Below, piece after piece: positions 23,282-63,412 of a stretch of DNA of 64,000 nt. Numbering within the stretch: position 1 is the stretch's first letter; the number at the start of each line of letters is the position of its first letter. The notes beneath the pieces were generated by a model, which searched no databases, was not told the DNA's origin, and worked only from the letters and a program-made list of their open reading frames with translations. The position numbers were made by a program, and so were the translations under genes. Source of the DNA: a virus; the IMG/VR virus record IMGVR_UViG_3300034358_000044, positions 96,001-160,000 of that record. One strand, written 5' to 3'.

Positions 23282-24988
23282 ATGAAGACCGCTGGCGTCG
23301 TGTTCGACTTCTACGACGATGCATCTGGGACGCTGCTGAAGGCGGCCTTCCCCACTCCCGACGAGCTCCCAGAGATCATCAAGGAGGCCCACATCCTCAA
23401 CTCGAATGAGCGAGACGTTCTTCGAGACGAGGCCTACGCCCTGGTGATGTCCAACAACGGGCACATCCTCCGCAAGTTCGCCTGCGTCGATGCCGGCAAC
23501 ACTCTGCTCTCCTGCCTCTACTTCGAGGAGAACGCCCAGAAGCTGCCGGAGGAGGCGGTGAAGGTGGCCGCCGTCAACCTCGCCTCCTTCTGCGAGGACT
23601 TCGGTTTCGAGCCAACCAACTTCGTCAAGATGGCGGCGGCGACCCAGAGTCGCACCAGGGACTCCATGAGGCAGCCCATCGTGGGAGACGAAGCCGACTG
23701 GGCACAGAGGACCAACCTCGTCTCGGTGCGTGGCGGTGCCGACAGTGGGCGTGTCATCCCCACTGCCAACCAGATGAAGACGGCCCAGGTCAAGACAGCG
23801 ATGTCCAGCTTCGCCAAGCACGTTGGTGGTGGGGCCGCTCTGGGGGGTGCTCTTGGGGTCGCAGGTGGGTCCAAGAAGGACGAAAACGGAAAGACCAACA
23901 AGCTCTATGGAGGTCTGACCGGTGCGGCAAGTGGTGGCTTCTTGGGGGCCTCTATTCACAGCATCCGCAACGTGGGCAACGAGATCGGCAAACAGGTTCG
24001 GCACGGCCACACCGGCAAGCCCCTGACTGACAAGGTCAAGACTCTGGCCGAGACGGACGTACAGAAGGTCCCGAAGAAGCTGAAGGATGTGGAGGAGTAC
24101 CTGCAGGCCTTCCCCCAGAAGGAAGTGAAGGCCTCAGTGCAGAAGCTCGCTGGGGGACAGGTTCTCACGGACGACAAGAAGGACAACGGGCCGGAGAAGA
24201 AGAACCCTGACATGCTGAACAGGGCGACGATGAAGGACAAGAACACCTTCGCTGTGGGAACCGGACAGGGAGACCTGGAGGTCAACTACAAGTCTCTCCC
24301 GAAGATCGCCATGGTGGTGGACGTCTCCAACAAGGAGCCAGTTCACAGGTTCGAGAAGAGGGCCTCGAAGCGTCACGCTCTCGGCACCAGCTACCCCCTG
24401 GATTCCTACCAGGACGTGAAGGCTGCGGCACAGTACTTCGACGACTACTACGGACAGTTCAACCCGGCCGACCGCCACGAGTACGCCGTGAAGACCGCCT
24501 CTCGTGCAGACGAGCTCGGCATTGCCACCAGCGAGCTTCTTCAGCGGTACGGCTCCACCGAGTACGCCCCGGACATCGACGCCCATCTGGCCAGCCGCAA
24601 GGCGGCAGCCCCCATGTTCGGCGCTGTGTATGACGCCATGCGAGAGAAGCGGGCGGAGGTCTCACCCGAGGTCTTCGTCGAGCTCCTGCAGAAGGTTGAT
24701 GAAGAAGCCGGCCTGAACTGGTACTACGGTGGGGACGTGACTGACCCCTACCTGGCGACCTTCGGCGGCAAGGAGAAGGCAGCAGCTTCCGAGTGGGCTT
24801 GGGAAGGCCCCAACGGGCAGGCGCTGACGGCGGAGCACCTCCAGGGCCTGGCGGAGTCCACAGGGTTCAAGAAGTCCTTCGATCAGGAACTCGTCTCTGA
24901 GTTCTGCAAGGATCCGACTACCATCTTCGACTCGCTGCCGAACGACACGAAGAACCTCATGGCCCGTATGGCGCTCTCGGAGGAATGA
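23282..24988 (+). CDS. probable virion head protein with many K-x-A/S motifs and a Gly/Ala-rich insert
   Basis: AAGGAG RBS; KTA, KVA, KMA, KLA, KIA, KRAS, KTAS. Confidence 0.6.
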   Translation: MKTAGVVFDFYDDASGTLLKAAFPTPDELPEIIKEAHILNSNERDVLRDEAYALVMSNNGHILRKFACVDAGNTLLSCLYFEENAQKLPEEAVKVAAVNLASFCEDFGFEPTNFVKMAAATQSRTRDSMRQPIVGDEADWAQRTNLVSVRGGADSGRVIPTANQMKTAQVKTAMSSFAKHVGGGAALGGALGVAGGSKKDENGKTNKLYGGLTGAASGGFLGASIHSIRNVGNEIGKQVRHGHTGKPLTDKVKTLAETDVQKVPKKLKDVEEYLQAFPQKEVKASVQKLAGGQVLTDDKKDNGPEKKNPDMLNRATMKDKNTFAVGTGQGDLEVNYKSLPKIAMVVDVSNKEPVHRFEKRASKRHALGTSYPLDSYQDVKAAAQYFDDYYGQFNPADRHEYAVKTASRADELGIATSELLQRYGSTEYAPDIDAHLASRKAAAPMFGAVYDAMREKRAEVSPEVFVELLQKVDEEAGLNWYYGGDVTDPYLATFGGKEKAAASEWAWEGPNGQALTAEHLQGLAESTGFKKSFDQELVSEFCKDPTTIFDSLPNDTKNLMARMALSEE

Positions 24989-25473
24989 TGCACGCTGCAA
25001 CCTACTCTGCGTTCAAGCAGGAACTCAGCAAGATCTCTTCTGGATGGGAACATGCAGCAGAGCTTGGTGGTCTTGGCCTGTTGGCGGCTCCGAGCGTTGG
25101 CCATCTTCGTGGAAAAGAGTGGAGTGAGAAGAACAAGTCCAAGGCGGAAGTTGCAGGTCTTGGAATCTTGGCAGCCCCGACCGCCTACAAAGTGATGAAG
25201 AGCGGGGTCAACAAGCTTCGAGGGGTCGCCCCATCGATCATGAAACATGCTTCGGTGGGACTGGCCGATGGGGCTCTGGGTCTCTTCAAGAAGGCTGACG
25301 TCTGGAACGCCAACACTGGGGCAATTCAAGGAGCTGCTTCTCTGAATCGCGGGGTTGCGACTGTCGCTGCTGCGAAGCCCAAGTTCGACGCGAAGGCGCT
25401 GGCGAACGCCTACAAGAATTCTGGTATCAAGCCTGGGATTCAGTCCGCAGCCAGGATGGTCTCCAGACGCTAA
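24985..25473 (+). CDS. leader-bearing small basic, Gly/Ala-rich protein
   Basis: (M)MHAATYSAFKQELSKIS leader; hydrophobic GGLGLLAAP and GLGILAAP segments. Confidence 0.7.
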   Translation: MMHAATYSAFKQELSKISSGWEHAAELGGLGLLAAPSVGHLRGKEWSEKNKSKAEVAGLGILAAPTAYKVMKSGVNKLRGVAPSIMKHASVGLADGALGLFKKADVWNANTGAIQGAASLNRGVATVAAAKPKFDAKALANAYKNSGIKPGIQSAARMVSRR

Positions 25474-25482
25474 GGATGGTCG

Positions 25483-26418
25483 ATGGTTTCTCCAGAACAA
25501 GATCTCTTCGACAGGCTCAAGGGCGCCGAGACCGTGAAGCCCACGGCCTCGTTGGAGAACTCTGCCGTGGCGAAAGACTTGGCCGCTGAGAGCAAGGACT
25601 CCACCACTGCAGTCACCCTGCGTAACCTCTTCACCCATCAGGACTCCCACCCAGTTGTCTTGGACTTCGCCCTCCTGAAGGCCTTCGGTCTGGAGTGGTA
25701 CGGGTGGGAGGCGGAGACCATCTGGGCGGAGGTTCGGCGCGTTTTCCAGATGCATATCTCAGAGGTGAACCGGGCGAAGGTTAACACTCTCAAGACGCTG
25801 CACGTCTCCAACACTCCGTGGGATCACTGGCAGGTCTTCGAGAAGATCGTCCAGGGACTGAACAACGTCGTTCCGCATTGGGGTTTCATGCAGGCCCCAA
25901 CCCTGGAGCAGCTCTACTCCGCCATCGACATGCTGGAACACATCAGGACTGTCGAGTTCAGCCATGAAGTGAAGGCGTACATCGCTACGGCGGTTCTTCA
26001 CGAAGAGGTCACCTTCGTTCCTCCTCCACTCAGCTTTGTTCAGCTCGAAGTCTCCAAGCCGTACTACCACTGCAAGGACTGCGGCCACGAGTACTCTGCT
26101 CTCTTCCATGACGGGTTTTGCGACTCCTGCACCCAGAAGATGGACCATGAGCAGGGGCTGTCGATGAAACCGAAGCAGGAACTTCTCAATCAGGGCATCG
26201 GCAAGAACATGGAGACCCGCCTACGGCATGACCCTGAGGCGGTGCAGAAGCGGTGGGATGCAGTAGGTCATCAGCCCTTGGAGAAGATCGAGCTCGAAGA
26301 GACTGAGGTCGACATCCAAGTGGCCAAGCTCTTGGTCGCTCGCGACTACATGAACGTTCGCCGGAGGCAGCTCACGGAGCAGCTCGTGACCCTCAAGGCC
26401 TGGCTGGGAGCCGTATGA
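25483..26418 (+). CDS. hypothetical protein with CxxC...CxxC
   Basis: 311 aa, CKDCG...CDSC. Confidence 0.75.
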   Translation: MVSPEQDLFDRLKGAETVKPTASLENSAVAKDLAAESKDSTTAVTLRNLFTHQDSHPVVLDFALLKAFGLEWYGWEAETIWAEVRRVFQMHISEVNRAKVNTLKTLHVSNTPWDHWQVFEKIVQGLNNVVPHWGFMQAPTLEQLYSAIDMLEHIRTVEFSHEVKAYIATAVLHEEVTFVPPPLSFVQLEVSKPYYHCKDCGHEYSALFHDGFCDSCTQKMDHEQGLSMKPKQELLNQGIGKNMETRLRHDPEAVQKRWDAVGHQPLEKIELEETEVDIQVAKLLVARDYMNVRRRQLTEQLVTLKAWLGAV

Positions 26419-27320
26419 ACGCCATCAGCATGGCCGCCTTCATCACTGAGATGGAGAAGATAGCTGACATTCACATTGGGGACAGCACGCATCCCATCAG
26501 GTCGGCCGGACTGTTCATTGGTACCGAGTCCGACCACGATGCGAAGGCCATGGTTCTCCAAAAGCTGTTGGAGAAGCACAAGTCCCTCAACAAGTCCCGA
26601 GCTGAATACCAGAAGCTCTTCCCCGATGACTATGTCACTGGGGCAATGCACTTCGACAAGACTCACTCCGGCAAACCGACACTTCACTTCCGTGTCGGGC
26701 GGGCTGGTGGTGAAGGACAGAGTGACTTCTACAACGCCGTTTTCTCGGAGGCGATGAAGAGAAAGACCGCAGGCCTCTTGAGAAATCTCGGAGCGCCCAT
26801 TCGCTCCTCAGGAAGGTGGATGGGGAAACAACTGGGGGGTATAGCCAAAGACGTTAAAGGTGTGGGCAAGGACGCCTTGACTCGTCCTCTGGCTGCTTCT
26901 CGTGAGGGGCTCGCAGAAACCGTCAAGCAGGTCACGACCGGCCCCAAGTTCTTTCGAGGTCTCGGAGGACTGGGACTTGCCGCCCAAGGAGCCCAGACAT
27001 TCTCTGACGCCAAGAATCTTGCTCCGAGTGTAGACCCCACTGGGGCAAAGCGTGGTAGAGGTGAGAGAATCGGTCAGCTTGCTGGAACGACCATGGGCGG
27101 CTTTATCGGCATGAAACGTGGAATCACAGGGTCCCTAGTGTCGAGTGAAGCAGGGCGTATTGGGGCAGGATTGATTGGAAGAGGAGTAGACAGGGCCATT
27201 GGTGCAGCACGTGGGATCAAGCCTCCGGCCCCTACCTCTATCCTCAATGACCCATCCATTCTCAACAACCCCAACGCTCTTCATAATGTTGGGATGAGAA
27301 CTTTCGGTTCTCGTGGGTAA
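26415..27320 (+). CDS. leader-bearing protein with Gly-rich hydrophobic C-half
   Basis: MNAISMAAFITEMEKIA leader; internal KTA; GxxxG-rich. Confidence 0.7.
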   Translation: MNAISMAAFITEMEKIADIHIGDSTHPIRSAGLFIGTESDHDAKAMVLQKLLEKHKSLNKSRAEYQKLFPDDYVTGAMHFDKTHSGKPTLHFRVGRAGGEGQSDFYNAVFSEAMKRKTAGLLRNLGAPIRSSGRWMGKQLGGIAKDVKGVGKDALTRPLAASREGLAETVKQVTTGPKFFRGLGGLGLAAQGAQTFSDAKNLAPSVDPTGAKRGRGERIGQLAGTTMGGFIGMKRGITGSLVSSEAGRIGAGLIGRGVDRAIGAARGIKPPAPTSILNDPSILNNPNALHNVGMRTFGSRG

Positions 27321-27329
27321 GGAGCAGCG

Positions 27330-43044: not shown

Positions 43045-43728
43045 ATGCATCCTCGGACTCTGTCAGCCTTCCAGAACGAGATGCGGAAGATGGCTTACGT
43101 GTCGTCTTCCGCCAAGCTCCTTGAAGTTGATGGAGTCCCGTTGTTGGAGAAGTACCTGGATCGCCAGGCCATGGAGAAGCTGTCCAAGGCAGAGGACGAC
43201 GATGGTTTCAACTTCTTCGAGCGCCACCCCAAGAAGATTCTTGGTGGTGCAGCACTTGCTGCAGGGACGGGGCTGTACCTCCTGAGCAGACGTAAGACTC
43301 CCAAGGTTCAGCCGAAAACGGTCCTGGAAGAGGCCAAGCAGGCGACGCACCCCGTAGCAGAGTCCCTACCGACGCCTTCAGTCCCCAAGGCCAGGGTTGA
43401 GGCGGTACTTCCCAAGTCCTCTCCCAAGGCCCCAGCGAAGCCTGGGAAGCAGGTAGAGGTGATGCTTCAGGGGAAGCCCGTCAAGCTCACCACGGAACGA
43501 AGTGAGCACGATTGGGTGGCAAGGGGACCGAATGCCGATAAGCCCCGAGTTGAGGGCTATCGACGAGACTCCAAAGCCCCAGTTCCTCGCCACCCCAGGG
43601 GACGGCATTTGAATCTTCAGGATGCATCCAAGATGGAGCGCCCACTCGAAGATGAGCAGGTACTTCTGAAGAAGTTCGGAATGGCCCGGCTTGCTTCTTT
43701 GGGGGCCATGTTCTACGTAGGTTCTTGA
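43045..43728 (+). CDS. leader-bearing protein with one hydrophobic segment
   Basis: MHPRTLSAFQNEMRKMA leader; ILGGAALAAGTGLYLL. Confidence 0.7.
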   Translation: MHPRTLSAFQNEMRKMAYVSSSAKLLEVDGVPLLEKYLDRQAMEKLSKAEDDDGFNFFERHPKKILGGAALAAGTGLYLLSRRKTPKVQPKTVLEEAKQATHPVAESLPTPSVPKARVEAVLPKSSPKAPAKPGKQVEVMLQGKPVKLTTERSEHDWVARGPNADKPRVEGYRRDSKAPVPRHPRGRHLNLQDASKMERPLEDEQVLLKKFGMARLASLGAMFYVGS

Positions 43729-45847: not shown

Positions 45848-46159
45848 TCACGGTGATTCGTTCTGCTCGTTTCCCATCTTGCGTTTCACGATGACTTGTA
45901 CGACGAGGGAGGTAGGTTTGATGGAGACCGCATTTCCCGGTACACAGTTGTTCTTGGTGAGCCACTTCTGGAAGATGTTCCATATCTCAAGAGCCACTTT
46001 CCCGTTGACTTTCTCTGGCCAGTAGAGCTTCAGCCCGTAAACGAGTGGGTTGACAGTGCCCACGACTTCATAGACCATCTCTTGGTCCAGGGCGCCTCCT
46101 GTTGACTCGCAGAATGCAGGAACCCACGCCAGAGGCGGTGGCACTCTTGAGGGCTTCAT
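45848..46159 (-). CDS. hypothetical protein
   Basis: start moved to ATG 46159 (GGAG RBS); shares CATG with the terminase start. Confidence 0.55.
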   Translation of the reverse strand: MKPSRVPPPLAWVPAFCESTGGALDQEMVYEVVGTVNPLVYGLKLYWPEKVNGKVALEIWNIFQKWLTKNNCVPGNAVSIKPTSLVVQVIVKRKMGNEQNESP

Positions 46160-47951
46160 GACAGTAGTCTCCAGTGAAGAGTACAAGAGACTCGACAACG
46201 ACGTCGTCATCTCTGAGAGCGGGCAGCCAGAGCCGAAGGAAGAATGGGACTACGAGCCAGTAGTTGAGGTGGACCCGGATGAGCTGGAACTGCAGAAAGG
46301 CAGCGAGCTCGTCTACATCTCTCCCTCCCGCTTTGTCGAGTTCGCCATCACGGTTCCCGACAAGGTGCTGCAGAAGCGAGTGCCCTTCTCCTTCGAGAAC
46401 CGCCGCTACCTCCGTCATCCCTACGACACCGCCTCCAAGCGCGTCCTCCTGAAGTGTGGTCGGCAGGTCGAGAAGAGCACGATGTTGGGGAACAAGTGCC
46501 TCTCGTACTGCGCCATCTACTCTGCCTTCAACGTCCTCTACGTTTCCCCCACCAACCTTCAGACGAAGACCTTCAGTCAGGACCGCTTGAAGGAGCCGGT
46601 GGAGACATCAGAACGATTGAAGGCTTGGACGACGTCGAAGCTGAGCGACAACGTCTTCTCCAAGAAGTTCGTCAACCGGAGCCAGATAACGCTCCGCTAC
46701 GCCTACCACAACGCCGACCGGGTTCGTGGCATCCCTGCTGACATGGTCCTCATTGATGAGGTCCAGGACATCATCACGGACAACCTTCCGGTCATCGAGG
46801 AGTGCGCCTCCCACTCCGAGTTCAAGCTCTTCCTGTACTCAGGGACGCCCAAGTCTCTGGACAACCCTCTGGAGAAGTACTGGACGGAGCAGTCGACCCA
46901 GAACGAGTGGGTGGTGCCCTGTGAGCACCACGGCCTCCCCAAGGATCCCAGCACCTGGTTCTGGAACATCCTCAGCGAAGAGAACATGGGCAAGGAAGGT
47001 CTCATCTGTTCTCGCTGTGGGAAGCCCATCTACTCGATGCACCCACACTCCCAGTGGGTGTCGATGAACCCGAACGTCTACACCCGACTGAAGCAGCCCT
47101 TTGAGGGCTACCGGGTACCGCAGCTCATGGTGCCTTGGCTTGACTGGCACGAGCTCCTCGACAAGCGTACCAAGCAGTCCCAGACGGTCTTCTTCAACGA
47201 GGTGTTGGGGCTCTCCTACGACTCCGGTACTCGCCCCCTCACTCGGCAGGACGTCGTCGATAACTGCCAGCCTGGGCTCTTGATGACGGAGTCCAACCTC
47301 ACCGACATCAAGCGACACATGGGTACGGCTTCTCCCATCTTCGCCGGCATCGACTGGGGTACTGGTGAGAATACGTACACCGTCCTCACCCTGGGCGGCT
47401 ACATCAACGAGTACTTCACCATCTTCTACATTCACCGTTTCGAGGGGCCTGAGATGGAGCCAGAGGTGCAGCTCGACCTCATCGAGACCATCATCAAGAA
47501 CTGGAACGTCAAGGTGGTGGGGACAGACTACGGCGGCGGCTTTGATCGCAACGATCGTCTCCAGCGGAAGTTCGGAAGGGACCGAATCTGGAAGTACCAG
47601 TACTCGACCCCTTCCCAGAAGGTGAAGTGGGAGGACAAGTTCCACCGTTTCATCGTCCACCGCACCGAGGTGATGTCGGACATCTTCAACGCCATCAAGC
47701 GGAGGAACGTCTTCCGCTTCCCTGACTGGCAGCAATTCGAGGACCCCTTCTCCAAGGACCTCCTCAACATCTTCTCGGAGTACAACGAGCAGGCCCGGCA
47801 GATTCAGTACAAGAAGTCGCCTGACGTGACGGACGACTCCTTCCACTCCATCCTGCTCTGCTTCCTTGTCTCGATGCTGCGCCACCCCAGGCACGATGTT
47901 CTGAACCCTCAGGCGCGCACGTCTGCTGGTGCAATGGACATTGAGGACTAA
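46158..47951 (+). CDS. terL: terminase large subunit (lambda GpA-like)
   Basis: KCGRQVEKST, LYVSPT, LIDEVQD, SGTPKS, WVVPC...CSRCG, GIDWG nuclease motif. Confidence 0.85.
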   Translation: MTVVSSEEYKRLDNDVVISESGQPEPKEEWDYEPVVEVDPDELELQKGSELVYISPSRFVEFAITVPDKVLQKRVPFSFENRRYLRHPYDTASKRVLLKCGRQVEKSTMLGNKCLSYCAIYSAFNVLYVSPTNLQTKTFSQDRLKEPVETSERLKAWTTSKLSDNVFSKKFVNRSQITLRYAYHNADRVRGIPADMVLIDEVQDIITDNLPVIEECASHSEFKLFLYSGTPKSLDNPLEKYWTEQSTQNEWVVPCEHHGLPKDPSTWFWNILSEENMGKEGLICSRCGKPIYSMHPHSQWVSMNPNVYTRLKQPFEGYRVPQLMVPWLDWHELLDKRTKQSQTVFFNEVLGLSYDSGTRPLTRQDVVDNCQPGLLMTESNLTDIKRHMGTASPIFAGIDWGTGENTYTVLTLGGYINEYFTIFYIHRFEGPEMEPEVQLDLIETIIKNWNVKVVGTDYGGGFDRNDRLQRKFGRDRIWKYQYSTPSQKVKWEDKFHRFIVHRTEVMSDIFNAIKRRNVFRFPDWQQFEDPFSKDLLNIFSEYNEQARQIQYKKSPDVTDDSFHSILLCFLVSMLRHPRHDVLNPQARTSAGAMDIED

Positions 47952-49262: not shown

Positions 49263-50306
49263 ATGAACAACGAGTCATCCATTGCCCTGCTAAGCAAGGG
49301 CAAGAGCGCAAACATCTCCCCCGAGAAGCTGGAGATGATGGGCAAGGAGGCTGCCAACATCTTCATCGAGAAGCACATCTCCCTCAACGAGAGCATCTCG
49401 AAGCTGGCTGCGGCACACGATGACATCAGCCAGGAACAAATCAAGAGGGTCTGCGAATTCGCCAACACCGCCGTGTACCTGGCGAAGCACGACATGGCCA
49501 AGACCGCCGGCTCCTCTTCGAGCTATCCCGAGTTCGACCTGGCCGATCCGAACCGTGTCATCCAGGACCTCTCGGATGGAACCAAGTCCACTGTCACCAC
49601 CAAGGTGGATGCTGACTACAGCCGCCTGCCTCAGAAGGTGAAGACCTCTTCCGCAGAGAAGAAGGTCGTTCGAATTGACCGGATGAAGGGGGCCAATGGG
49701 AAGCCGAACTACTGCGTCCATCACTACAGTGATGGAACCAGTTCCGGCCCGACCACTACAAAGACGGCCTCTCCAGCCGAGATGGCCCTTGAGGAACTCT
49801 TCACTTCGAAGACTGCAGAAGACCTCGACTACTCCAAGGACACTGCCGTCAATGAGGTGATGGCCGCCAAGGAGCAGCTCATCGGCCTCAGGGACCATCT
49901 TCGTTCCGCCGGAGAGCAGTTCGACCTGCTGCGCAAGGAGTCTGCTTCCGAGCTCTACGAGCTCTCCAAGCGCTTCATGATGGACGGGGGCAGCTTTGCC
50001 GACATCGGCAAGGTGGCCTACGCTGTCAGCCAGAGTCAGGACGAGATGGCGAATCTCCTCGACCCCATCATCAAGGGGCTGCTGAAGGAGAAGGTCTCCA
50101 GTGCCTCTGAGCTCAAGCTGGGCATCCGTGGGATGGAGAAGGTGGCTCACCGTACCGTCAATCCCGAGCACCCCATGATGAAGGTGGCAGCCGCCGTCCT
50201 CGTGGCCGACAGAGAGATGGAGAAGGTGGCCCAGGGGCTCAAGGAGGTCACTGCCGGACTCAACGAGGTGAACTCCTTCATCAAGGAGCAGCTCCGTGCT
50301 GGGTAG
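49263..50306 (+). CDS. probable head/core protein with many K-x-A motifs
   Basis: KTAG, KTSS, KTAS, KTAE, EKVA, KVAA. Confidence 0.6.
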   Translation: MNNESSIALLSKGKSANISPEKLEMMGKEAANIFIEKHISLNESISKLAAAHDDISQEQIKRVCEFANTAVYLAKHDMAKTAGSSSSYPEFDLADPNRVIQDLSDGTKSTVTTKVDADYSRLPQKVKTSSAEKKVVRIDRMKGANGKPNYCVHHYSDGTSSGPTTTKTASPAEMALEELFTSKTAEDLDYSKDTAVNEVMAAKEQLIGLRDHLRSAGEQFDLLRKESASELYELSKRFMMDGGSFADIGKVAYAVSQSQDEMANLLDPIIKGLLKEKVSSASELKLGIRGMEKVAHRTVNPEHPMMKVAAAVLVADREMEKVAQGLKEVTAGLNEVNSFIKEQLRAG

Positions 50307-50530: not shown

Positions 50531-51151
50531 ATGACCGCCGAAGAGATTCTCGCAGCTGCCAACGAGGCGAACCCTGAGTACGTCGAGAAGACGGCGAACG
50601 CTCTGTTCGTTCTGCAGCATGGAGAGCCAGAGTTCGTTGACGAGATGATGAAGGACATCAACATCATCACCGCAGTCACGATGGAGAAATCTGCAGGAGT
50701 GAAAGACGTTTTGAGGCGTGGTTGGGGCAGTACTGGGGGGAAGCTCCCTGACGCAGCTCAGGGTGTGCTGATTGCCGGTGCAGCTTCAGTCGCTCTCGGA
50801 CTGGGGGCAGCAGTGGCAGGAGACCTCTACGATGCTGCCAAGAGAGGCCTCACCAGGAAGAGGAACTACGATGCCATCGTCAAGGCGAACCCGGACCTTC
50901 AGCGCCACGACAAGAAGGAGCTCATCAACTCCTTCTCCACTCTTCACCGCTTCGCTCCTGAGTTCACTGCAGATCCTCGCCTGGGTGGTGAGCTCCTGGG
51001 GGCCATGGCCTCTTTGGGAGGCGGTGCTGAAGGGGGGCAGCGTGCCCTGGTTGAGGAGCTCCTCAACTCCAGGAAGACGTTGGTTGACGCCCGGAAGAAC
51101 CAGTTCTCTCTCGGCAGGCCCGATGCCAGCATGATGGGATTCAAGAAGTGA
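50531..51151 (+). CDS. probable head protein with a hydrophobic segment
   Basis: start moved to ATG 50531 (GGAG RBS); EKTA, EKSA; VLIAGAASVALGLGAAVAG. Confidence 0.65.
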   Translation: MTAEEILAAANEANPEYVEKTANALFVLQHGEPEFVDEMMKDINIITAVTMEKSAGVKDVLRRGWGSTGGKLPDAAQGVLIAGAASVALGLGAAVAGDLYDAAKRGLTRKRNYDAIVKANPDLQRHDKKELINSFSTLHRFAPEFTADPRLGGELLGAMASLGGGAEGGQRALVEELLNSRKTLVDARKNQFSLGRPDASMMGFKK

Positions 51152-52758
51152 TCAAGCAGCTTTCCTATCTCGGTCGAACCGAGCAAGGCATCTTCGCTCA
51201 AGCGCTCTTCGGGAGTGCTGGGGCCTTCGAGAAGACTGCCGGCGCTCCTCCGTTTGCCAACTTGGAGACCGGTGACGAGCTGAGGAAGGCTGTCTCCAGC
51301 ATCACCAAGAAGGACAGAGAAGCGTTCTGCTACGTCCTGGTGAACGCCTTGGGAGCTGGAGAGTTCTTTGGCTCCAACATCAACGCGGACTGGTTCCCGT
51401 GGAATGCTCTCTCCCACCAAGGGGATGACTACGGGTACAAGACGTTCTTGAGGGCGCACGCCTTCTCTCACCACAAGAACAAGGATCCTCAGCGCGCCTT
51501 CGGTGTACCCATCTCCTCCCTACTGAACCCGCGCATGAAGCGGGTCGAGCTCATCATCAAGCTCGACAGGGAGAAGGCGAAGCTGGAGCAGGCGGACGGC
51601 ATCATCAGCCGCATCGACGCCGGAGAGTTCCCTGACGTCTCGATGGGCTGCAAGGTTCCATTCGACGTCTGCTCCATCTGCGGTAACCACAGCAAGACGA
51701 AGGACGACTACTGCAAGCACATGAGGCCCGACCCGGAAGACCGGGACAAGTGGGGGCCGAACAAGATTCTCCCAGATGGACGGCGCATCTGCGTCATCAA
51801 CACGCTTCCTAGGTTCTTCGACATCTCCTTCGTCTTCATTGGAGCGGATAAGACCGCCAAGGTGATGATGAAGTTGGCCTCAAGAAACATCGTCACTGGC
51901 CCAATCATTCTGTCGGCCGATGCAGGTGCTCAGTTCTACGAGGGTATTGGTAAGCAGAAGACCGCCTCCGTTCGACAGGAGCTCCCCAAGATGGCCTCCC
52001 AGAAGAAGGTCTCAGAGATTCTGAAGGACATTCCTGCTGGCACCTTCTCCATGAAGAGGCTGTCCTCTCTGGAGAGGGCCGAGCCCACCATCGGTAAAAA
52101 GGCGCTCAAGAAGCTTTCCCAGCATCCCCTGTCTGCTGCCCTCGGGGCCACTGCTGCGATGGGCATCGTCCTCAAACCGGAGGAGTTCCAGTATCTGGTG
52201 TTGGAGAAGATGGGTGAAGCAGAGCTGGCAGACATCCTCTCCAATGAGACTCTGGTCTTCCACAAGACCGCATCCTTCCACCATACGGACATCGAGTTTA
52301 TCAAGGAGGCGGTCGATTCCTCCATTTCTCTTCTTCGAGACGTGGTGAAAGAGCGGACAGTCTTTGGGGAGCCGTTCGTGCTTCGAACGGCTGCTCCTTC
52401 AGAAGCCCCCAAAAACCCTCTTCCCACACCTTCTCCGGTCGAGCATTCTCTTCTGGACAAGATCAGCGCGGCATACAATGGTTACCGTTGGTCGCTGATG
52501 ATGAAGCTGTCGGAAGCGTCGGAGATGGTGGAGAGCGACTCAAGGTTGCGAGAGGCTGTACTGGGAGACGGACTGGTGAACATGTTTTCAAAGACGGCCA
52601 GTCGTTCCCCACTCATCACTCGCGACTCGGTAGCATACATGATGGGCGCTCATTTCTCTGACCGTAGTGTGTTGTCGAATGCTGCAGTCGTCGATGCGAT
52701 TGCAGAGAGCAACAAGGACTTCCTCAATGGTGAGGGGTTCTCGGCCCAGGGGTTCTGA
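51148..52758 (+). CDS. putative prohead maturation serine protease with Zn finger
   Basis: HAFSHHKN (His), DVSMGC (Ser), CSICG...CKH; upstream of scaffold and capsid genes; several KTAS/KxAS in the C-half. Confidence 0.7.
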   Translation: MIKQLSYLGRTEQGIFAQALFGSAGAFEKTAGAPPFANLETGDELRKAVSSITKKDREAFCYVLVNALGAGEFFGSNINADWFPWNALSHQGDDYGYKTFLRAHAFSHHKNKDPQRAFGVPISSLLNPRMKRVELIIKLDREKAKLEQADGIISRIDAGEFPDVSMGCKVPFDVCSICGNHSKTKDDYCKHMRPDPEDRDKWGPNKILPDGRRICVINTLPRFFDISFVFIGADKTAKVMMKLASRNIVTGPIILSADAGAQFYEGIGKQKTASVRQELPKMASQKKVSEILKDIPAGTFSMKRLSSLERAEPTIGKKALKKLSQHPLSAALGATAAMGIVLKPEEFQYLVLEKMGEAELADILSNETLVFHKTASFHHTDIEFIKEAVDSSISLLRDVVKERTVFGEPFVLRTAAPSEAPKNPLPTPSPVEHSLLDKISAAYNGYRWSLMMKLSEASEMVESDSRLREAVLGDGLVNMFSKTASRSPLITRDSVAYMMGAHFSDRSVLSNAAVVDAIAESNKDFLNGEGFSAQGF

Positions 52759-52814: not shown

Positions 52815-53594
52815 ATGGATCCCCAGCTTGCAGCAATCTACGGAACGGCGAATGTCGATGAGGCAGACCTGGAGAAGCTCGCCGCAGCCGAGCTCGCAGA
52901 AGGCCTCGCCAACGAAGAAGAGGGCACGGAAGACCTGACCGAGGAGGACCTGGAGGCGATCGCTCAGGACGTCCTCAACGGTTCCGACGAGGGCGACGAG
53001 GGTCAGGAGAAGACCTCTGAGGCGCAGGAGAAGCTGGCCGAGGCCGACTACCTCGGCCGCGTGATGGCGCACTCGTACGTCAACGAGCTCCGCAGCATCG
53101 AGAAGACGGCCGAAGATGCAGCGCCCGCCAAGGCCAAGGAGCCGGGACGTGTGCGCCAGGCAGCAGGCAAGGCCTGGGGTGCGGTCAAGGGTGGTGGCAA
53201 GCGCTACGGCGAGCTGATGCGTGGTGGCAAGGCGGGCGAGGCAGGTGAGATGGCAGGACGTCGTGCCGGCAACTCGCTCAAGGGTTTCAAGCAGATGCGT
53301 GGTGAGGCGCTGAAGTCTCTCGGCGCTCGTGGTGGTACTGCCATCGGTGCCGCTGGTGCCGCCTACGGCGCCAAGAAGCTGTATGACAAGGTCAAGAAGT
53401 CGTCGGCCGTCGACACGCTCGTCGAGCAGCGCGCGCTGGAGATCCTCGAAGCCAACGGCATCGATCCGAACCAGCTCTCCCCGGTCGAGGGGCAGACCAA
53501 GATGTCGGATCCCCGTGAGGCGCTGGCCAACGAGGTCGAGCAGAGGGCCTGGAACCTGCTCGGCCAGTACGGAGTGGTTCCCGACGAGGAGTGA
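52815..53594 (+). CDS. scaffold/core-like acidic protein with a basic Gly/Ala insert
   Basis: AGGAG RBS; EKLA x2, EKTA, KKSS. Confidence 0.6.
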   Translation: MDPQLAAIYGTANVDEADLEKLAAAELAEGLANEEEGTEDLTEEDLEAIAQDVLNGSDEGDEGQEKTSEAQEKLAEADYLGRVMAHSYVNELRSIEKTAEDAAPAKAKEPGRVRQAAGKAWGAVKGGGKRYGELMRGGKAGEAGEMAGRRAGNSLKGFKQMRGEALKSLGARGGTAIGAAGAAYGAKKLYDKVKKSSAVDTLVEQRALEILEANGIDPNQLSPVEGQTKMSDPREALANEVEQRAWNLLGQYGVVPDEE

Positions 53595-53609: not shown

Positions 53610-54062
53610 ATGCCGGAATGGATTCACCAGAGAGCAGACCACATACGGGCCAAGAACCCAGGCATGTCTGAATCTCAATCCTTCGCCATCGCTACCCAGC
53701 AGGCTCATGCATCAGGCAAGGCCCCTCGGGGGTTCGGTACTCCCGAGGGGAAGAGGGAAGCGAAGAAGAAGTACGATGAGCCGAAGTCCGCCTACAAGAA
53801 GACAGCGGACCCCGGCCACATCGCCAAGACTTCCTCGGTCATGGTGATGTGGGCTGGGTTCTCTGATGAACTCCAGAAGATCGCATTCGCAGGTGCTTCA
53901 ACGGTTTCCAATGTCACCAAGCCAATACCTACTCCAGGTATGAAACTGCCGAAGTTGACAGCAAAGCCGGTGGTAACGGAGCCGGAATCACCGGCCTCAA
54001 AGTTGGACCTCTTGGGAAGTTCTCGAACGCCACAACCGCCGCCTGTGACTTCAGGTGGGTAA
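53610..54062 (+). CDS. basic protein with an internal leader-like motif
   Basis: WAGFSDELQKIA; KKTA, KTSS. Confidence 0.6.
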   Translation: MPEWIHQRADHIRAKNPGMSESQSFAIATQQAHASGKAPRGFGTPEGKREAKKKYDEPKSAYKKTADPGHIAKTSSVMVMWAGFSDELQKIAFAGASTVSNVTKPIPTPGMKLPKLTAKPVVTEPESPASKLDLLGSSRTPQPPPVTSGG

Positions 54063-56443: not shown

Positions 56444-57565
56444 ATGAGCACCGTTCCCGCAAAGGTTCTGAACGATCTCTTCTTCGAAAAGATCGGATCT
56501 GCAGAGGGCAAGGACAAGATCGCCGAGTTCGGCGGTACGTACATCCGTGACCGTCTGCGTGAAGTCTCGTTCGCCAGGAAGATCATCCCGCCCACCCCGG
56601 TGCAGCGCAGCGAGCTGCAGCGTTCGGTGAACCACGACACCCTGGTGAAGATCGTCGACATCGAGCCCGACTCGAAGGCGATGAGCCTCACCTTCCGTGG
56701 CCAGCCCACGGCCCGGTTCATTCGTGCGCCGCGCTTCGAGATCCCCTTCTTCACCATCTCCTCGGAGAAGTTCGAGAAGACGGAGCAGGAGCTCCTGGCG
56801 TACGAGATGCCCATCACCAAGATCATCGAGGAGAACTCGGTCAAGGACATCCAGGCGATCGAGGACCGGCAGTTCCTCATCTACGTCGAGGCCTGCATCC
56901 AGGCGTACCAGCTCGACAGCAACAACGGAGTCGCGACCTCCTTCAACAGGACCCGCGTCCTGGCCGGTACGGTCGTCAGCTCCTCCGTGGTCAAGAGCGA
57001 GGGTGCTCTGGCTGCGTCGGCCGACAACTTCATCGTCCACCCCCTGCTGAAGCCCGACTTCATCAAGCTCAAGCAGGTCATGCACCGTCGCTTCCTGCGT
57101 GCTGAGCGCATCCTCATCACCGAGCCCGACTACGACAACCTCTCGGCCTGGACCATCCAGGACGTGTGGAGCATCGCTGCCGAGACGGCGACCGAGGGCT
57201 GGAAGGCCAACACGGTGGTCGGCCTCAAGATCATCCGCACCATCAAGACGAACATCCTCCGCGAGGGCAACATCTACTGCTTCGCGGCTCCCGAGTTCTT
57301 CGGCCGGTTCTACATCCTGAACCAGACGAAGTTCTACATCGACAAGATCGCCAACCTCATCACCTGGCAGTCGTGGGAGGACATCGGGATGGGCTTCGGC
57401 AACATCGCCGCCGTGGTCAAGCTGGAGCTCTACTCCGGCTCGGTCACCCCGGGTGCCACCGACACCGGCTTCTGGGCCGAGCTGCCCAAGGACGAGGACG
57501 ACCTGTCGCCCATCAACAACAGGGCCGACAAGGGCCTGACCACTCCGGAAGTCGACCAGTTCTGA
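56444..57565 (+). CDS. major capsid protein (HK97-fold, inferred)
   Basis: 373 aa, extreme GC3 bias, follows protease/scaffold/decoration genes, strong terminator downstream. Confidence 0.75.
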   Translation: MSTVPAKVLNDLFFEKIGSAEGKDKIAEFGGTYIRDRLREVSFARKIIPPTPVQRSELQRSVNHDTLVKIVDIEPDSKAMSLTFRGQPTARFIRAPRFEIPFFTISSEKFEKTEQELLAYEMPITKIIEENSVKDIQAIEDRQFLIYVEACIQAYQLDSNNGVATSFNRTRVLAGTVVSSSVVKSEGALAASADNFIVHPLLKPDFIKLKQVMHRRFLRAERILITEPDYDNLSAWTIQDVWSIAAETATEGWKANTVVGLKIIRTIKTNILREGNIYCFAAPEFFGRFYILNQTKFYIDKIANLITWQSWEDIGMGFGNIAAVVKLELYSGSVTPGATDTGFWAELPKDEDDLSPINNRADKGLTTPEVDQF

Positions 57566-58674: not shown

Positions 58675-59208
58675 GTGTCGGACCAGGAAGCAATGTACGA
58701 TCCGCCACGGCCACCACCTGCACCGTTGGACTCTCCTTCTGTCCCCAGAGCCCACATCGAGCTCAACAACTTCGTGAATCAGGTTCGGTCCTTCATGAGG
58801 GACTACCCTGAGCTCAACCGCCTGGTCGCTGGGGTGGAGAGCTCCAACCGGCAAATCGTTTGGGCCATCTTCGACACTCTGGACGACTTCAACTCCAGCC
58901 CGCCCTTCACGATGCACAACGTGGAGTCCTTCCCCTCCAAGAGCCTTCTCATCCGGGGCACGGTCTGCTCTCTCTTGGAGTCCATCGGTCTCCTTCAGAC
59001 GCGCAACCACCTCCAGTTCTCGGACGGCGGCATCACCGTAGGGGTGAGCGACAAGACCCCCTTCATCCAGTCCTGGCTGCAGCTCTTCCGCAACTCCTAC
59101 GAGGCGAAGAAGGAGAAGCTGAAGGTGGCCTACAACATCGAGACGGCCTGGGGTGGTGGAGTCTTCTCGGAGTACCGATTCGTGAACAACTTCTACGGGG
59201 AGTGGTGA
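58675..59208 (+). CDS. possible head-tail adaptor
   Basis: 177 aa, helical, downstream of the MCP; function inferred from position. Confidence 0.4.
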   Translation: MSDQEAMYDPPRPPPAPLDSPSVPRAHIELNNFVNQVRSFMRDYPELNRLVAGVESSNRQIVWAIFDTLDDFNSSPPFTMHNVESFPSKSLLIRGTVCSLLESIGLLQTRNHLQFSDGGITVGVSDKTPFIQSWLQLFRNSYEAKKEKLKVAYNIETAWGGGVFSEYRFVNNFYGEW

Positions 59209-59699
59209 TGCATCCCTACATGTTCAAGGGTTTCGAAGATGAGCTTCAGAAGATCGCCATCTCAGAAGAGTGGGCGAGAGAGCACTCTCGAAGAGGGATG
59301 GCAAACCGCTTGAGGCTGGAGGAAGCGACTCTCACTGGAACTGGGGCTCGTAGAAGTCGTGCTGTAAAGGGAGGCCATGAACTGACGAGTAAGGGAAACG
59401 ACAGGGCCCTCGATCTCCAAGGACGGCTCGCGAGCCGAAAAGATTCCATTTCCTCCAGAACCCAGAAGAACCTGGATGCTTCGTGGGCAGGAGTGACGGA
59501 TGCTTTCAAGGACACGAAAGACTTGAAGAAGTCTATTTCAAAGTCTCGCGCCGAGAAGGTCAAGAGCATTCGAAACCTCAACACCGTCAAGAAGGTGGGC
59601 AAGGGTGTTGCCGGTGTCGGAGTTCTTGCTGCTGGTGCCTACGGAGCCAAGAAGATGTACGACCGGCAGAGGACCAAGATCCCTGCTAAAAGCGAGTGA
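59208..59699 (+). CDS. leader-bearing basic protein with a C-terminal hydrophobic segment
   Basis: MHPYMFKGFEDELQKIA; GVAGVGVLAAGAYGAKKMYD. Confidence 0.7.
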   Translation: MHPYMFKGFEDELQKIAISEEWAREHSRRGMANRLRLEEATLTGTGARRSRAVKGGHELTSKGNDRALDLQGRLASRKDSISSRTQKNLDASWAGVTDAFKDTKDLKKSISKSRAEKVKSIRNLNTVKKVGKGVAGVGVLAAGAYGAKKMYDRQRTKIPAKSE

Positions 59700-59703
59700 G
59701 CCA

Positions 59704-61950
59704 ATGCACGTCGCCACGCTCACTGCCTTCGAGGACGAGCTTGAGAAAGAGGCAGATGTCATCACGCCCCTCAAGGCGCATCAGCAGAGGGTCGTCGATC
59801 GCATTCAGCAGGAGGACCAGCCCGGTCTTGTGGTGGCCCACGGACTGGGTTCTGGCAAGACGCTGACGTCCATTGCCGCCCAAGACGCATTGGGGATGCA
59901 TGCGGACGTCGTTGTTCCTGCCGCCCTACAGGCGAACTACAAGAAGGAAATCAAGCAGCACACCAAGGGCAAGGTTCCCAAGGCGGCCATTCAGTCGATG
60001 CAGAACGTGGCCACCAAGAAGACGCAGTTGAAGCGCCCGATGATGGTAGTGGACGAGGCCCACCGCATGAGGGATCCGTCCTCCAACACCTTCCAGACGC
60101 TGAAGGGGACGGAAGCCAAGAAGCGACTACTCCTCACTGGGAGCCCATTCTACAATCACCCTTCGGACATCGCCCCACTCATCGACCTGGCCGCCAATGC
60201 CAAGGTGCTACCATTCGACAAGGATGAGTTCACTCGGGCCTATATTGCCGAGAAGACCATCAACCCCAGTTTCGGGCAGAGTCTGGCCAACATCTTTCGT
60301 TCTGATGAGAATAAGGTGAGGCCCGGTTTCGTGCCCATTCTCTACGAGAAGAAGGCTCCTGAACTACGAGCCGCCTTCAAGAAGTGGGTCGACTACCATC
60401 CAGGCAGCAAGGATGCAGAGGGCTTCCCGGATGTCGAGAAGAGGGACGTCCCCATCGAGATGACGAAGGAACAGCTTCGCGTCTACGATACCCTCATGGA
60501 CAGGGCGCCCGCTTGGGTCGCCGCCAAGGTGAAGCGCGGATTGCCTCCCAGCAAGCAAGAGGCCTCGCAGCTCAACGCCTTCCTCACGGCTTCTCGGCAG
60601 GCCACCAACACCACCGCCCCCTTCCAGCAGGACCAGAAGAACATCCAGGACCCGAAGATTCAAGCCGCCTTCTCCAGCCTCAAGAAGACCCTGGAGGGCA
60701 ACCCGCGAGCTCGGGCAGTGGTGTATTCCAACTTCCTGGATGCAGGCATCAATCCCTACAAAGCCAAGCTGGACGAAGCCAAGATTCCCTACGGGGAGTT
60801 CACTGGGGCCATGTCCAAGAAGAAGAGGGAGGAGATAGTCCAGCAGTACAACGCAGGTAAGCTGCGAACGCTTCTCCTCTCCAGTGCAGGTGGGGAAGGT
60901 TTGGACTTGAAGGGCACCAGACTGATGCAGATTCTGGAACCTCACTGGAACGAAGAGAAGCTGAAGCAGGTCCATGGGCGTGGGGCTCGCTACATGAGCC
61001 ACTCCGATCTACCTCCTGAAGAGCGAAAGCTCCTCATCGAGAACTACATCGCCAAGCGCCCCCAGGGACTGCCGACGTCGGTCTACAACAAGATCACGGG
61101 TCGAGCCCCGGACAAGTCAGTGGATGAGTACTTGACCCAGATGTCCGGCGACAAGGAGAAGCTCATCGAACAGTTCCGTGCGCTCCTCCCGAATGGGAAA
61201 GAGAAGAAGTCTGCTGCCGAGAAGAAGAAGGAACTCTTCGTCACCGACGAGAACACTCAGCGAGGCAAGACCACTGAGGTATCCAGAGAGCTTGCCAAGT
61301 CCCTGAAGCCGAGGGCGGCAGCCTTTGCTACCTTCACTGCCCCATTGGCTCTCACCGGGTTTCGTCTCGCTCGGGGGCTAGGGCCGAACATGAGTACGAA
61401 GTCACAGGCCCTTGCTGGAGGTGTTGGGGCGGCTCTCGGTGGTGCTCTGGGACACTTCATTGCCCATAATCAGACCGCCAACATCATCAACGACAGCAAG
61501 GCCATTGCCCGTCAAGCTCTTCGAACCGCCTCCAAAGAGAACAGCCTTCGAGAGGAAGCTGGGAAGATGAACTGGGGTGATGTTGCGCGTTCCTCCAGGA
61601 ATCGCGTCATCAGTGATGTGGCCACCTCCGCTCCAGTACTCACTCGACTAGCGACCCAGCACATCCAGGGAAAGGGGCTTAAATTCCCCACGACGGACCT
61701 GGGGCTCATGGCGGCTGGAAACATCCTAGGCTCCATCGGATCCGGCTACCTAGAGAAGTACAAGAAGATGATTGCCGTGAATGAGCTCGACAACGTCAAA
61801 GCTCGTATGGCGGAGCAGGACGCTACGCGCCTCAAGAGACTTCGTAACCAGGTAGCCCAGCTGGAGACTCGGGTCGAGGGGGACGGATGGAACGCCCCCA
61901 AGAAGGACGACGCTCCAGTTGAGAAGAAGAAGGGCAAGCTGGACTGGTAG
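59704..61950 (+). CDS. leader-bearing SF2 (SNF2-like) helicase/translocase with a Gly/Ala-rich C-terminal domain
   Basis: MHVATLTAFEDELEKEA; HGLGSGKT, DEAH, LLTGSP, GGEGLDL, QVHGRGAR. Confidence 0.85.
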   Translation: MHVATLTAFEDELEKEADVITPLKAHQQRVVDRIQQEDQPGLVVAHGLGSGKTLTSIAAQDALGMHADVVVPAALQANYKKEIKQHTKGKVPKAAIQSMQNVATKKTQLKRPMMVVDEAHRMRDPSSNTFQTLKGTEAKKRLLLTGSPFYNHPSDIAPLIDLAANAKVLPFDKDEFTRAYIAEKTINPSFGQSLANIFRSDENKVRPGFVPILYEKKAPELRAAFKKWVDYHPGSKDAEGFPDVEKRDVPIEMTKEQLRVYDTLMDRAPAWVAAKVKRGLPPSKQEASQLNAFLTASRQATNTTAPFQQDQKNIQDPKIQAAFSSLKKTLEGNPRARAVVYSNFLDAGINPYKAKLDEAKIPYGEFTGAMSKKKREEIVQQYNAGKLRTLLLSSAGGEGLDLKGTRLMQILEPHWNEEKLKQVHGRGARYMSHSDLPPEERKLLIENYIAKRPQGLPTSVYNKITGRAPDKSVDEYLTQMSGDKEKLIEQFRALLPNGKEKKSAAEKKKELFVTDENTQRGKTTEVSRELAKSLKPRAAAFATFTAPLALTGFRLARGLGPNMSTKSQALAGGVGAALGGALGHFIAHNQTANIINDSKAIARQALRTASKENSLREEAGKMNWGDVARSSRNRVISDVATSAPVLTRLATQHIQGKGLKFPTTDLGLMAAGNILGSIGSGYLEKYKKMIAVNELDNVKARMAEQDATRLKRLRNQVAQLETRVEGDGWNAPKKDDAPVEKKKGKLDW

Positions 61951-61988
61951 CTGTTCTCACTCCTCCTGAATGAATGTAGGTTAGGAAC

Positions 61989-62828
61989 ATGCATCTCCGC
62001 ACCCTTACGGCTTTCGATGACGAGCTCGTGAAGATCGCCGTCTCGGAGAGGGAGAACTCTCAGACCCTTCGTGACCAGAAACGCTTGGATCTTTTTCATA
62101 AGACACTGGCGGTAGGTGGCTCAGCATATGGGGCTCATGCTCTTGGTGTCGGGGCCAACCGTGCTCTGGTTGGCTCGTTGATTAGAGGGGAGCAAGGTCT
62201 CTCTACGTCCCCACAGCATATTCTCGACCTTCACCATCAGATTCACCCAGAGGGTATGGTTGTTCCTGTGGAAGGGGGTCTTGATTTCGCCAAACACATC
62301 TACCACGGGACTCCGACTGCTGGGATACCTCGGGGAGCTGTAGAAGAGATAAACGGGCCCGGCGGAGTGCATCTTCCGAAGACGACGAGAGGGGTGAGTA
62401 TAGCTCCTACTCAGGTAGGGCCTCACATAACTGCACATGAACTCGGACACGGAAGGTTTTCACAGGGAAAGCTGGGAAGGGCTGCCATAGGGGCTAAGAG
62501 ATTTCTTGGCACGCATCAAACAGCTGTAGGGCGTGCAAGCGCAATAGGTTCGTATGGAATGGCTCTTCAAGACCCTGACAGCGCGGCTTCAAAGTTGGCT
62601 CCGGTAGTCGGCGGCCTTCGACACCTCCCAACTCTTGTTGACGAGGCTGGCGCCACATTCCATGGACTACGAGGAATGAAGGCTCTCGGGATGAAGGGTG
62701 GGAAGGCTTCCCTAGCCAAGGCATTCGGTACGTACGCGGCGGCGGCTGCCCCTTCCGTACTGGGTCCCGCTGGTGTTCGTCAGTTCATGAAGTACAAGAA
62801 GAACAAGGCCAAGGAGAGCGCTCCGTGA
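61989..62828 (+). CDS. leader-bearing zincin-like metallopeptidase
   Basis: MHLRTLTAFDDELVKIA; AHELGHG (HExxH) and downstream DEAGA. Confidence 0.65.
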   Translation: MHLRTLTAFDDELVKIAVSERENSQTLRDQKRLDLFHKTLAVGGSAYGAHALGVGANRALVGSLIRGEQGLSTSPQHILDLHHQIHPEGMVVPVEGGLDFAKHIYHGTPTAGIPRGAVEEINGPGGVHLPKTTRGVSIAPTQVGPHITAHELGHGRFSQGKLGRAAIGAKRFLGTHQTAVGRASAIGSYGMALQDPDSAASKLAPVVGGLRHLPTLVDEAGATFHGLRGMKALGMKGGKASLAKAFGTYAAAAAPSVLGPAGVRQFMKYKKNKAKESAP

Positions 62829-63412
62829 GTCCTGTCAGTCTCGCAGCTTTTCAAGATGAGCTGATGAAGATCGCCTCTGTCAGTGAGACTCTCAAGGGTC
62901 TCGCCAAGAACCCCGCTGTGGGTGGGGCTGTATTGGGTGGTGGTCTCGGGGCCGGAACCAACATCCGAAAAGAGATGGCGACCCGGCACGGGGAGGACTA
63001 CCACCCTGACCAGGAGCTGGTGGCGAAGAACCGAAAGAAGCGCATCGGTCGCATGGCTGCCAGCACTGCGGCCTCTGCCGGCACCGGAGCCCTTCTAGGG
63101 CACTTCGGAGGGAAAGGTGTTCGGGCTCTCAAGAACACCGCCAAGAATGCCATCAAGAATGTTGGCGATGAGGTCAAGGGAGTGGTCTCTCACACTGGGG
63201 GAGAGATCAAGGGTACTACCTCCCATATCGCTGATGACGTGAAGACCACGTCTTCACACCTGACTGACAGGGCCAAGGACGTAGGGGACGTCATCAAGGA
63301 CGTCAACACCGGAGTGGGTCGCAGACTCCTGGCGCGTCCCAAGGAGAAGGGTCCCTCCGTCTTTGAGCGAATCAAGAGTGTCTGGAACGGAAAGAAGAAG
63401 GAAACCACATGA
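62825..63412 (+). CDS. leader-bearing Gly/Ala-rich basic protein
   Basis: MSPVSLAAFQDELMKIA; VGGAVLGGGLGAG. Confidence 0.7.
   Translation: MSPVSLAAFQDELMKIASVSETLKGLAKNPAVGGAVLGGGLGAGTNIRKEMATRHGEDYHPDQELVAKNRKKRIGRMAASTAASAGTGALLGHFGGKGVRALKNTAKNAIKNVGDEVKGVVSHTGGEIKGTTSHIADDVKTTSSHLTDRAKDVGDVIKDVNTGVGRRLLARPKEKGPSVFERIKSVWNGKKKETT

Follow-up and report, generated by a model that had tools for sequence, protein, structure and literature searches.

The stretch of DNA described here, which we call the window, comprises 64,000 nucleotides (bases 96,001-160,000) of IMG/VR virus record IMGVR_UViG_3300034358_000044, a single viral contig of 195,735 bp with 58.6% GC that CheckV scores as 100% complete. 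It contains the head-assembly region of a large tailed phage (Table 1), and genes in this region encode otherwise unrelated proteins that share a 17-residue leader with the consensus M-[HN]-x-x-T-L-x-A-F-x-D-E-L-x-K-I-A. The tagged genes adjoin head genes: two immediately precede the portal-like gene, one follows the gene for an 862-amino-acid (aa) protein, one falls within the protease-capsid block, and four in a row come after the capsid module. An earlier, sequence-only reading of this DNA had reported seven N-terminal leaders and one internal copy, and translation gives the listed peptide at all eight positions. A loose regular expression applied to the six frames of the window returns these eight copies, all on the + strand, and two unrelated matches, at 57467 (+) and 19047 (-). 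When a position-specific scoring matrix (PSSM) and then a hidden Markov model (HMM) built from the copies were run on every stop-to-stop open reading frame (ORF) of the 195,735-bp genome, 13 leader copies scored 24-35 bits and the next-best match 7.8 bits. The leader is N-terminal in 12 of these 13, the exception being ORF 53610-54062. The seven N-terminal leaders of the earlier count therefore stand, while the total does not, since the genome has 13 copies; an HMM search of the genome and its relatives was the check that the earlier reading had itself proposed, and pattern searches (see below) find the leader in relatives as well. A literature search found no paper describing the motif.

What is conserved among the copies is the peptide. 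Synonymous codons at the conserved residues differ from copy to copy (GCT/GCC/GCG/GCA, CTG/CTT/CTC/TTG, ATC/ATA/ATT), so conservation is at the protein level and selection acts on the peptide, not on DNA or RNA. Several of the N-terminal copies are preceded by a purine-rich sequence resembling a ribosome-binding site, and the leader at 24988 has an extra ATG one codon upstream, at 24985. The bodies behind the leader are as unrelated as first supposed: no pairwise similarity among the 13 is significant (best E 0.033 in a 13-sequence database), and distinct known folds are included. Here, as in a T4-type system, one short N-terminal peptide is common to otherwise unrelated proteins of one phage. 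The proposal that the leader is an amphipathic helix agrees with both its hydrophobic moment (0.36-0.65) and an AlphaFold2 (AF2) model, which predict such a helix at the N-terminus. The hydrophobic face consists of positions 6, 9, 13 and 16 (L6-F9-L13-I16). In the model of the N-terminal 520 residues of the tagged helicase, residues 3-16 form a separate helix, followed by coil to residue 24 and then the helicase fold, with low confidence in the leader part (predicted local distance difference test, pLDDT, ~50-60).

The proteins that carry the leader, which we refer to as cargo, are net basic in 12 of 13 cases. Those with known domains are an SNF2 helicase and a MazG-kinase, and the set also includes an HExxH protein and small basic Gly/Ala-rich proteins. 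The HExxH protein had been called a metallopeptidase; its HELGH motif is indeed present, and beyond that there is only a weak structural likeness to Zn_peptidase_2 (Atlas, TM 0.5-0.6). Other bodies had been described as Gly-rich and membrane-like; their Gly-rich segments are only weakly hydrophobic and are not classical membrane helices. The 301-aa tagged protein has only a weak tape-measure-like PHROG match. The protein with MazG and P-loop-kinase-like parts, identified with Pfam, is encoded outside the window (genome 30716-32095; L019:716-2095). Read by eye, its C-terminus is Cys/His-rich and possibly SWIM-like, and the same C-terminal domain occurs in the relative G015 (156365-157150; L164:16365-17150) with the same kind of leader and a different N-terminal domain. 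That G015 domain contains L-Y-H-G-T ahead of the SWIM-like part, and a Pfam batch scan that included this ORF had no ADP-ribosyltransferase- or Tpt1-type family among the families listed.

The set of cargo proteins is not the same in related phages. For most of the tagged proteins, no orthologue could be detected in G001, G002 or G005, three of the relatives. A few have orthologues in G015 and G016, and these retain the leader, which is their best-conserved part; this applies to the 161-aa protein in both relatives and to the 163-aa protein in G015. The 150-aa protein with the internal copy consists of a ~80-aa N-terminal part, the leader core and a 58-aa tail, and its G001 orthologue keeps the internal motif. 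The ~80 residues before that motif (53610-53840, +) are conserved in G001 and absent from the G015 counterpart. Among relatives, tagged proteins include SNF2 helicases, C92 amidases, a GNAT acetyltransferase and a glyoxalase-family protein; a transketolase match to the leader pattern, in L100, is a chance match.

Table 1. Features of the head-assembly region and leader-bearing genes (window coordinates unless marked as genome coordinates).
Feature	Position	Strand	Basis and details
568-aa protein upstream of first tagged gene	23282..24988	+	weak Gly-zipper-like stretch
Leader-tagged gene, 161 aa, basic Gly/Ala-rich body	24988..25473	+	leader at 24988-25038; profile match
Leader-tagged gene, 301 aa, ends just before portal-like gene	26415..27320	+	profile match
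Portal-like protein	27330-29372		
Fused beta-beta' multisubunit-type RNA polymerase, 2,090 aa	32221-38493	+	
Conserved head-region protein, 862 aa	39596..42184	+	FRKMA-ending N-terminal peptide (residues 12-19); LIKEAA at residues 776-782
Leader-tagged gene, 227 aa, leader variant ...NEMRKMA	43045..43728	+	profile match
gpA-type large terminase	46158-47951		
Head-module protein, 347 aa, K-x-A-rich	49263..50306	+	MEKVA site conserved in relatives
Prohead maturation protease (predicted), 536 aa, catalytic domain ~residues 50-235	51148..52758	+	phrog_18299 (weak); AF2 model
Acidic scaffold-like protein between protease and capsid genes	52815..53594	+	position; alignments with relatives
Head-module gene, 150 aa, internal leader core at residues 81-92 (nt 53850-53885)	53610..54062	+	regular expression; profile
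Major capsid protein, K-I-A at residues 25-27 (within nt 56507-56524)	56444..57565	+	phrog_2522; 31% identity to Arash major capsid protein
Leader-tagged gene, 163 aa, opens a run of four tagged genes past capsid module	59208..59699	+	profile match
Leader-tagged SNF2-type helicase, 748 aa, leader residues 1-17, core from ~25	59704..61950	+	Pfam SNF2-rel_dom, Helicase_C; phrog_62; AF2
Leader-tagged HExxH (HELGH) protein, 279 aa	61989..62828	+	motif; structural lead
Leader-tagged gene, 195 aa, GTG start, Gly-zipper-like body	62825..63412	+	profile match
Leader copies outside the window	genome 12986, 13366	-	PSSM/HMM scan
Leader copies outside the window	genome ~30716, 55500, ~164610	+	PSSM/HMM scan

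The leader is found well beyond this one genome. A degenerate DNA pattern for A-F-x-D-E-L-x-K-I-A matches at least 118 stretches of IMG/VR; among the matches listed, 134 matches represent 117 unique contexts, on contigs of up to 210 kb and 30-68% GC. A start codon lies 3-14 codons upstream in 104 of these 117 contexts, the modal Met position being exactly 7 residues ahead of A-F, the spacing also seen in the window. Tagged genes can follow one another in tandem; a 168-kb IMG/VR contig (L087) packs four of them into 1.2 kb. With the codons of the pattern in reversed order, 47 matches were obtained from 11 contexts, all of them internal; a rough chance estimate for the pattern, about 3, had been too low. 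Across 596 Gb of bacterial and archaeal genomes the true pattern had at least 120 matches; among those listed, 16 of 123 were N-terminal-like, and most fell within enzymes of the cell (transketolase, PhoU and HemN-like proteins, for instance). A looser pattern was applied to 18 near-complete genomes (at least 91%), namely the window's own, 16 leader-bearing relatives and G005, and found 1-11 copies in 17 of the 18, with the backward control at 0 in all 18. These counts, taken with the controls, make the extended tag characteristic of a single phage clade with genomes of 170-210 kb, several of them with terminal repeats. Megablast found no close relative of the window's phage among GenBank phages, and the similarity of its terminase, capsid protein and RNA polymerase to cultured phages extends no further than ~30% identity, with Salmonella phage Arash and the Vibrio phages D69, D148 and D181.

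Several observations from these scans concern the surroundings of the leader in other contigs. A contig of 115,798 bp binned as an Anaerolineales metagenome-assembled genome (L284, CAZEQC010000003.1) has four tandem tagged genes much like those of L087; it is either a phage contig binned with a Chloroflexota genome or a hint to the host. In two IMG/VR loci (L043 and L046) the leader core lies ~490-570 residues into long ORFs, with 175-221 residues after it, and by eye the stretch before the core resembles the end of an ATP-dependent DNA ligase, so that these ORFs may be another fused arrangement of enzyme and cargo. In several relatives (L061, L115, L139) the leader core comes after a small domain; its signature is E-H-T-x-x-P-x-x-A-x-x-I-A-x-D-H-L-x-E-x-P-x-Y-Y, and it is also present inside a helicase fusion of L006.

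The last three residues of the leader, K-x-A, connect it to the head proteins. In head-module alignments with homologues from G001, G002, G005, L002 and Arash, K-x-A tops the conserved a-x-b tripeptides with 18 sites, the runner-up pattern having 9. It is conserved at about residue 27 of the capsid protein; ~30 residues into the protease, just past its catalytic domain and again ~40 residues later (residues 29-31, EKTA; 242-244, MMKLA; 281-283, PKMA); in the 862-aa protein, at its N-terminus and close to its C-terminus; and in the 347-aa, 461-aa and scaffold-like proteins. The motif exceeds expectation 2-3 fold in the 568-aa protein (16 against 5.6 expected), the 347-aa protein (11 against 3.6), the 862-aa protein (2.5 times) and the protease, and does not exceed it in the RNA polymerase, TerL or the helicase body. 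At the aligned N-terminal position of the capsid protein, most of 28 relatives have K-[IVLEAT]-A, and K-I-A at residues 25-27 is a candidate end of an N-terminal propeptide. The 568-aa protein (23282-24988) is probably a heavily and multiply processed head-internal protein. The N-terminal peptides of helicase orthologues are variable, yet almost all close with [LF]-x-K-x-A, 6-8 residues ahead of the helicase core; in L006, L010 and L011 other domains are fused in front of the helicase, and K-E-A-A marks the junction. The leader had been said to end in a cleavage motif. What is seen is a shared sequence rather than a cut site: K-x-A recurs at conserved positions in the protease, in the capsid and scaffold-like proteins and in further proteins of the head module. 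The virion-type RNA polymerase has neither leader nor K-x-A excess. Its ORF has the domain order Rpb2 domains 3, 6 and 7, then Rpb1 domains 1-5; the homologous region is split or interrupted in Arash and Vibrio phage D69, and in D181 and D148 it is homing endonucleases that interrupt it.

The protein encoded at 51148-52758 is the candidate enzyme for this motif. Its N-terminal 270 residues were modelled with AlphaFold from a seven-sequence alignment (pLDDT 62), and a scan of the model against 48,161 Protein Data Bank (PDB) chains with VIA-align placed T4 gp21 (5jbl_A) first, with Z 8.8 and a root-mean-square deviation of 3.3 over 133 residues. The varicella-zoster virus protease came second (Z 7.6), and the proteases of human cytomegalovirus (Z 5.3) and Kaposi's sarcoma-associated herpesvirus (Z 4.6) ranked lower. 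His108-His109 and Ser165 are invariant inside the domain. Predicted structure and a weak PHROG match thus point to a prohead protease of the gp21/assemblin fold, such as a T4-type system has. The family is present in 36 of 40 leader-bearing contigs, and in all 16 of those that are at least 90% complete. In six relatives (G009, G044, G023, G042, G021 and G031) the protease domain lies within open frames of 1,100-1,680 aa; from their sequences, these long frames and the helicase fusions look like polyproteins that would be cut at K-x-A.

A second link between leader and head comes from the scaffold. Among the IMG/VR matches listed, a recurrent family has the exact leader core in an internal position: ~70 acidic residues, then ...G-R-x-x-A-R-A-F-x-D-E-L-x-K-I-A, then ~110 residues. 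The gene of this family sits between the protease and capsid genes, and its product aligns with the window's scaffold-like protein, which itself has a degenerate leader-like block at residues 87-99 (nt 53073-53111). In relatives, then, this protein has the leader core in full, and the cargo tag is the same element as the one it carries. The likeness suggests that the tag is probably a copy of a scaffold segment. Either the tag and the scaffold element would dock on one partner, or tagged cargo would co-assemble with the scaffold core, which would give the idea of loading a concrete mechanism.

We think it somewhat probable (roughly 0.6) that the leader is a capsid-loading propeptide resembling the T4 capsid-targeting sequence (CTS) and removed at K-x-A by a prohead protease of the gp21/assemblin type. 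Under this reading, the tagged proteins, to judge from the position of their genes, would be made late in infection together with the head proteins, and the amphipathic helix would dock on a core of scaffold and protease. After closure of the shell, the protease would cut itself, the capsid protein near its N-terminus, the scaffold-like and core proteins, and the leaders at their ends, each at K-x-A. That leader and head proteins have K-x-A in common is an observation; that they are cut there we infer, and the analogy with herpesvirus assemblin suggests a cut after Ala. The mature, mostly basic cargo would then stay with the DNA and enter the host with it. The 'arbitrary cargo' and 'plug-and-play' character attributed to the system in the sequence-only reading is likewise something we infer. 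To go further and regard the leader as a portable capsid-loading label of an uncultivated clade of 170-210-kb phages, copied from their own scaffold protein and independent of the T4 CTS, is a tentative step to which we give slightly less than even odds.

In T4, diverse internal proteins share just a CTS of 10-20 residues, which gp21 removes (PMC5694885), and in T4 as in phiKZ-like phages one protease trims the capsid protein, itself, core proteins and cargo propeptides at a single motif (PMC5694885). The system described here resembles that of T4 (IPI, IPII, IPIII and Alt) in that a short N-terminal peptide is the sole shared part of diverse proteins, which in T4 are internal to the head; in that this peptide ends in a protease motif, here the candidate K-x-A, also found in capsid and scaffold or core proteins; and in that a protease of the same predicted fold is present and cargo is basic and variable between relatives. 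It differs in that the leader has no sequence similarity to the CTS, is 17 rather than 10-20 residues long, and ends in K-x-A instead of L/I-x-E, which makes it an analogue and not a homologue. Homology with the T4 CTS (MKTYQEFIAE-type, L/I-x-E) was considered and rejected on the grounds that consensus and ending differ and that the phage is not T4-like: unlike T4, it has a gpA-type terminase and an RNA polymerase with beta and beta' fused, and among cultured phages Arash and Vibrio phage D69 are closest to it. In phiKZ, 201phi2-1 and SPN3US, many propeptides of head and ejection proteins are removed by a gp21-like protease at S/A/G-x-E, and a role in loading is inferred (PMC5694885). Those propeptides are mostly >100 residues long and do not form one shared short tag, and their motif ends in Glu, not Ala. 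An Ala at the likely P1 position, together with the predicted fold family of the protease, is instead a point of likeness to herpesvirus assemblin. The maturation and release sites of assemblin, whose main substrate is the scaffold, are cut between Ala and Ser in a V/L/I-x-A context, different from the K-x-A found here. We know of no multi-cargo leader system in herpesviruses.

A number of points weigh against capsid loading by a cleavable leader. The leader-bearing phages are known here from sequence and predicted structure. The confidence of the protease model is modest, a sequence search with the protease against the PDB gave no match, and Foldseek with the model returned nothing significant, gp21 and herpesvirus proteases recurring in its weak rows. 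The K-x-A motif is short, and leader and protease may occur together only through the shared ancestry of one clade. In the complete relative G005 the protease family is present and no extended leader is recognisable, so the long tag is not essential to the head machinery. The 40-kb head regions read in the cultured relatives Arash and Vibrio phage D69 contain K-x-A sites but no extended leader, and the Arash orthologue of the tagged helicase, Gp217, has no leader. Gp217 was nevertheless detected in Arash virions by mass spectrometry, along with RNA polymerase subunits, which were among the most abundant proteins, the beta subunit Gp206 being the most detected (PMC10585845). This finding in a distant relative speaks indirectly for capsid loading. 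The same study lists 116 'virion' proteins (PMC10585845), a number that leaves room for carry-over or contaminants; its supplement comprises gene and protein sequences and no peptide list.

How far do these points favour other explanations? The leaderless Gp217 in Arash virions (PMC10585845), together with the fact that the most widely conserved element is just K-x-A and that the N-terminal peptides of more distant relatives are short and variable, with K-x-A at the end and no long helix, would fit a peptide that is only a pro-sequence for the protease, serving as a substrate or keeping the protein inactive until cut, with entry into the head by other means or no loading role at all. We regard this as unlikely, because the 10-12 residues before K-x-A are conserved at a fixed distance from Met1 in genomes of very different GC, which exceeds the usual protease subsite, and because the extended motif is N-terminal in 104 of the 117 unique contexts among the matches listed, whereas plain K-x-A occurs anywhere. 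Moreover, a substrate of a prohead protease must be inside the prohead anyway. It is a good deal harder to believe that the extended peptide acts at the level of nucleic acid, as an element of translation initiation or regulation, or that it arose by chance or paralogy. Its location at gene starts and the adjacency of several tagged genes might suggest as much, and we give such ideas almost no weight: a nucleic-acid signal is ruled out by the variation at synonymous positions and by the persistence of the peptide from 30 to 68% GC, a paralogous family by dissimilar bodies with distinct known domains and folds, and the controls are nearly without N-terminal matches.

The helix could also be an address tag for a machine other than the prohead, such as an AAA+ unfoldase, an N-terminal degradation signal, a membrane-targeting helix or an export leader. 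Class II bacteriocins have double-glycine leaders that are cut by C39 peptidase domains, and the leader shares with these a short N-terminal amphipathic helix, an E-L-x-x-I pattern of similar spacing, and a dedicated protease, which here is a proposed one. Many cargo proteins also contain Gly/Ala-rich, weakly hydrophobic segments. The differences are nonetheless considerable, in that the leaders here have no Gly-Gly end, the cargo includes large enzymes of cytoplasmic type, among them a 748-aa helicase, and tagged genes cluster by head genes. The C39 peptidase (PF03412) is absent from the complete phage genome, the control genomes being positive, and the residues after K-I-A are varied, so processing of the bacteriocin type was rejected. 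The Prp peptidase (PF04327) is absent from the phage genome too, though the host may supply one; we take the motif to be unlike the L27 extension of Prp-processed proteins such as the capsid and scaffold proteins of phage 80alpha. Since the scaffold-like protein contains the motif as well, and the motif is linked with the K-x-A sites of the protease and the capsid protein, we judge another machine to be quite improbable, and capsid loading with cleavage at K-x-A remains the reading we prefer.

Having found that one short peptide heads so many otherwise unrelated phage proteins, the next question is what it could tell us about them. Phage proteins that are injected together with the DNA are early weapons against host defences, and outside a few model phages they are unrecognisable from sequence. 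If the tag marks head cargo, it is a direct label for that set of proteins in a large clade of phages from soil, freshwater and the sea, and one short profile would read the injected-protein repertoire of hundreds of environmental phages from sequence. This repertoire would include helicases, MazG-kinases, amidases, acetyltransferases and pore-like Gly-zipper proteins. The leader would also provide a second tag, with no relation to that of T4, by which foreign proteins could be packaged into phage heads, possibly of use in laboratory strains, and the findings point to a defined and testable K-x-A specificity for a gp21-like enzyme. Finally, the motif common to the tag and the scaffold-like protein suggests how such tags arise.

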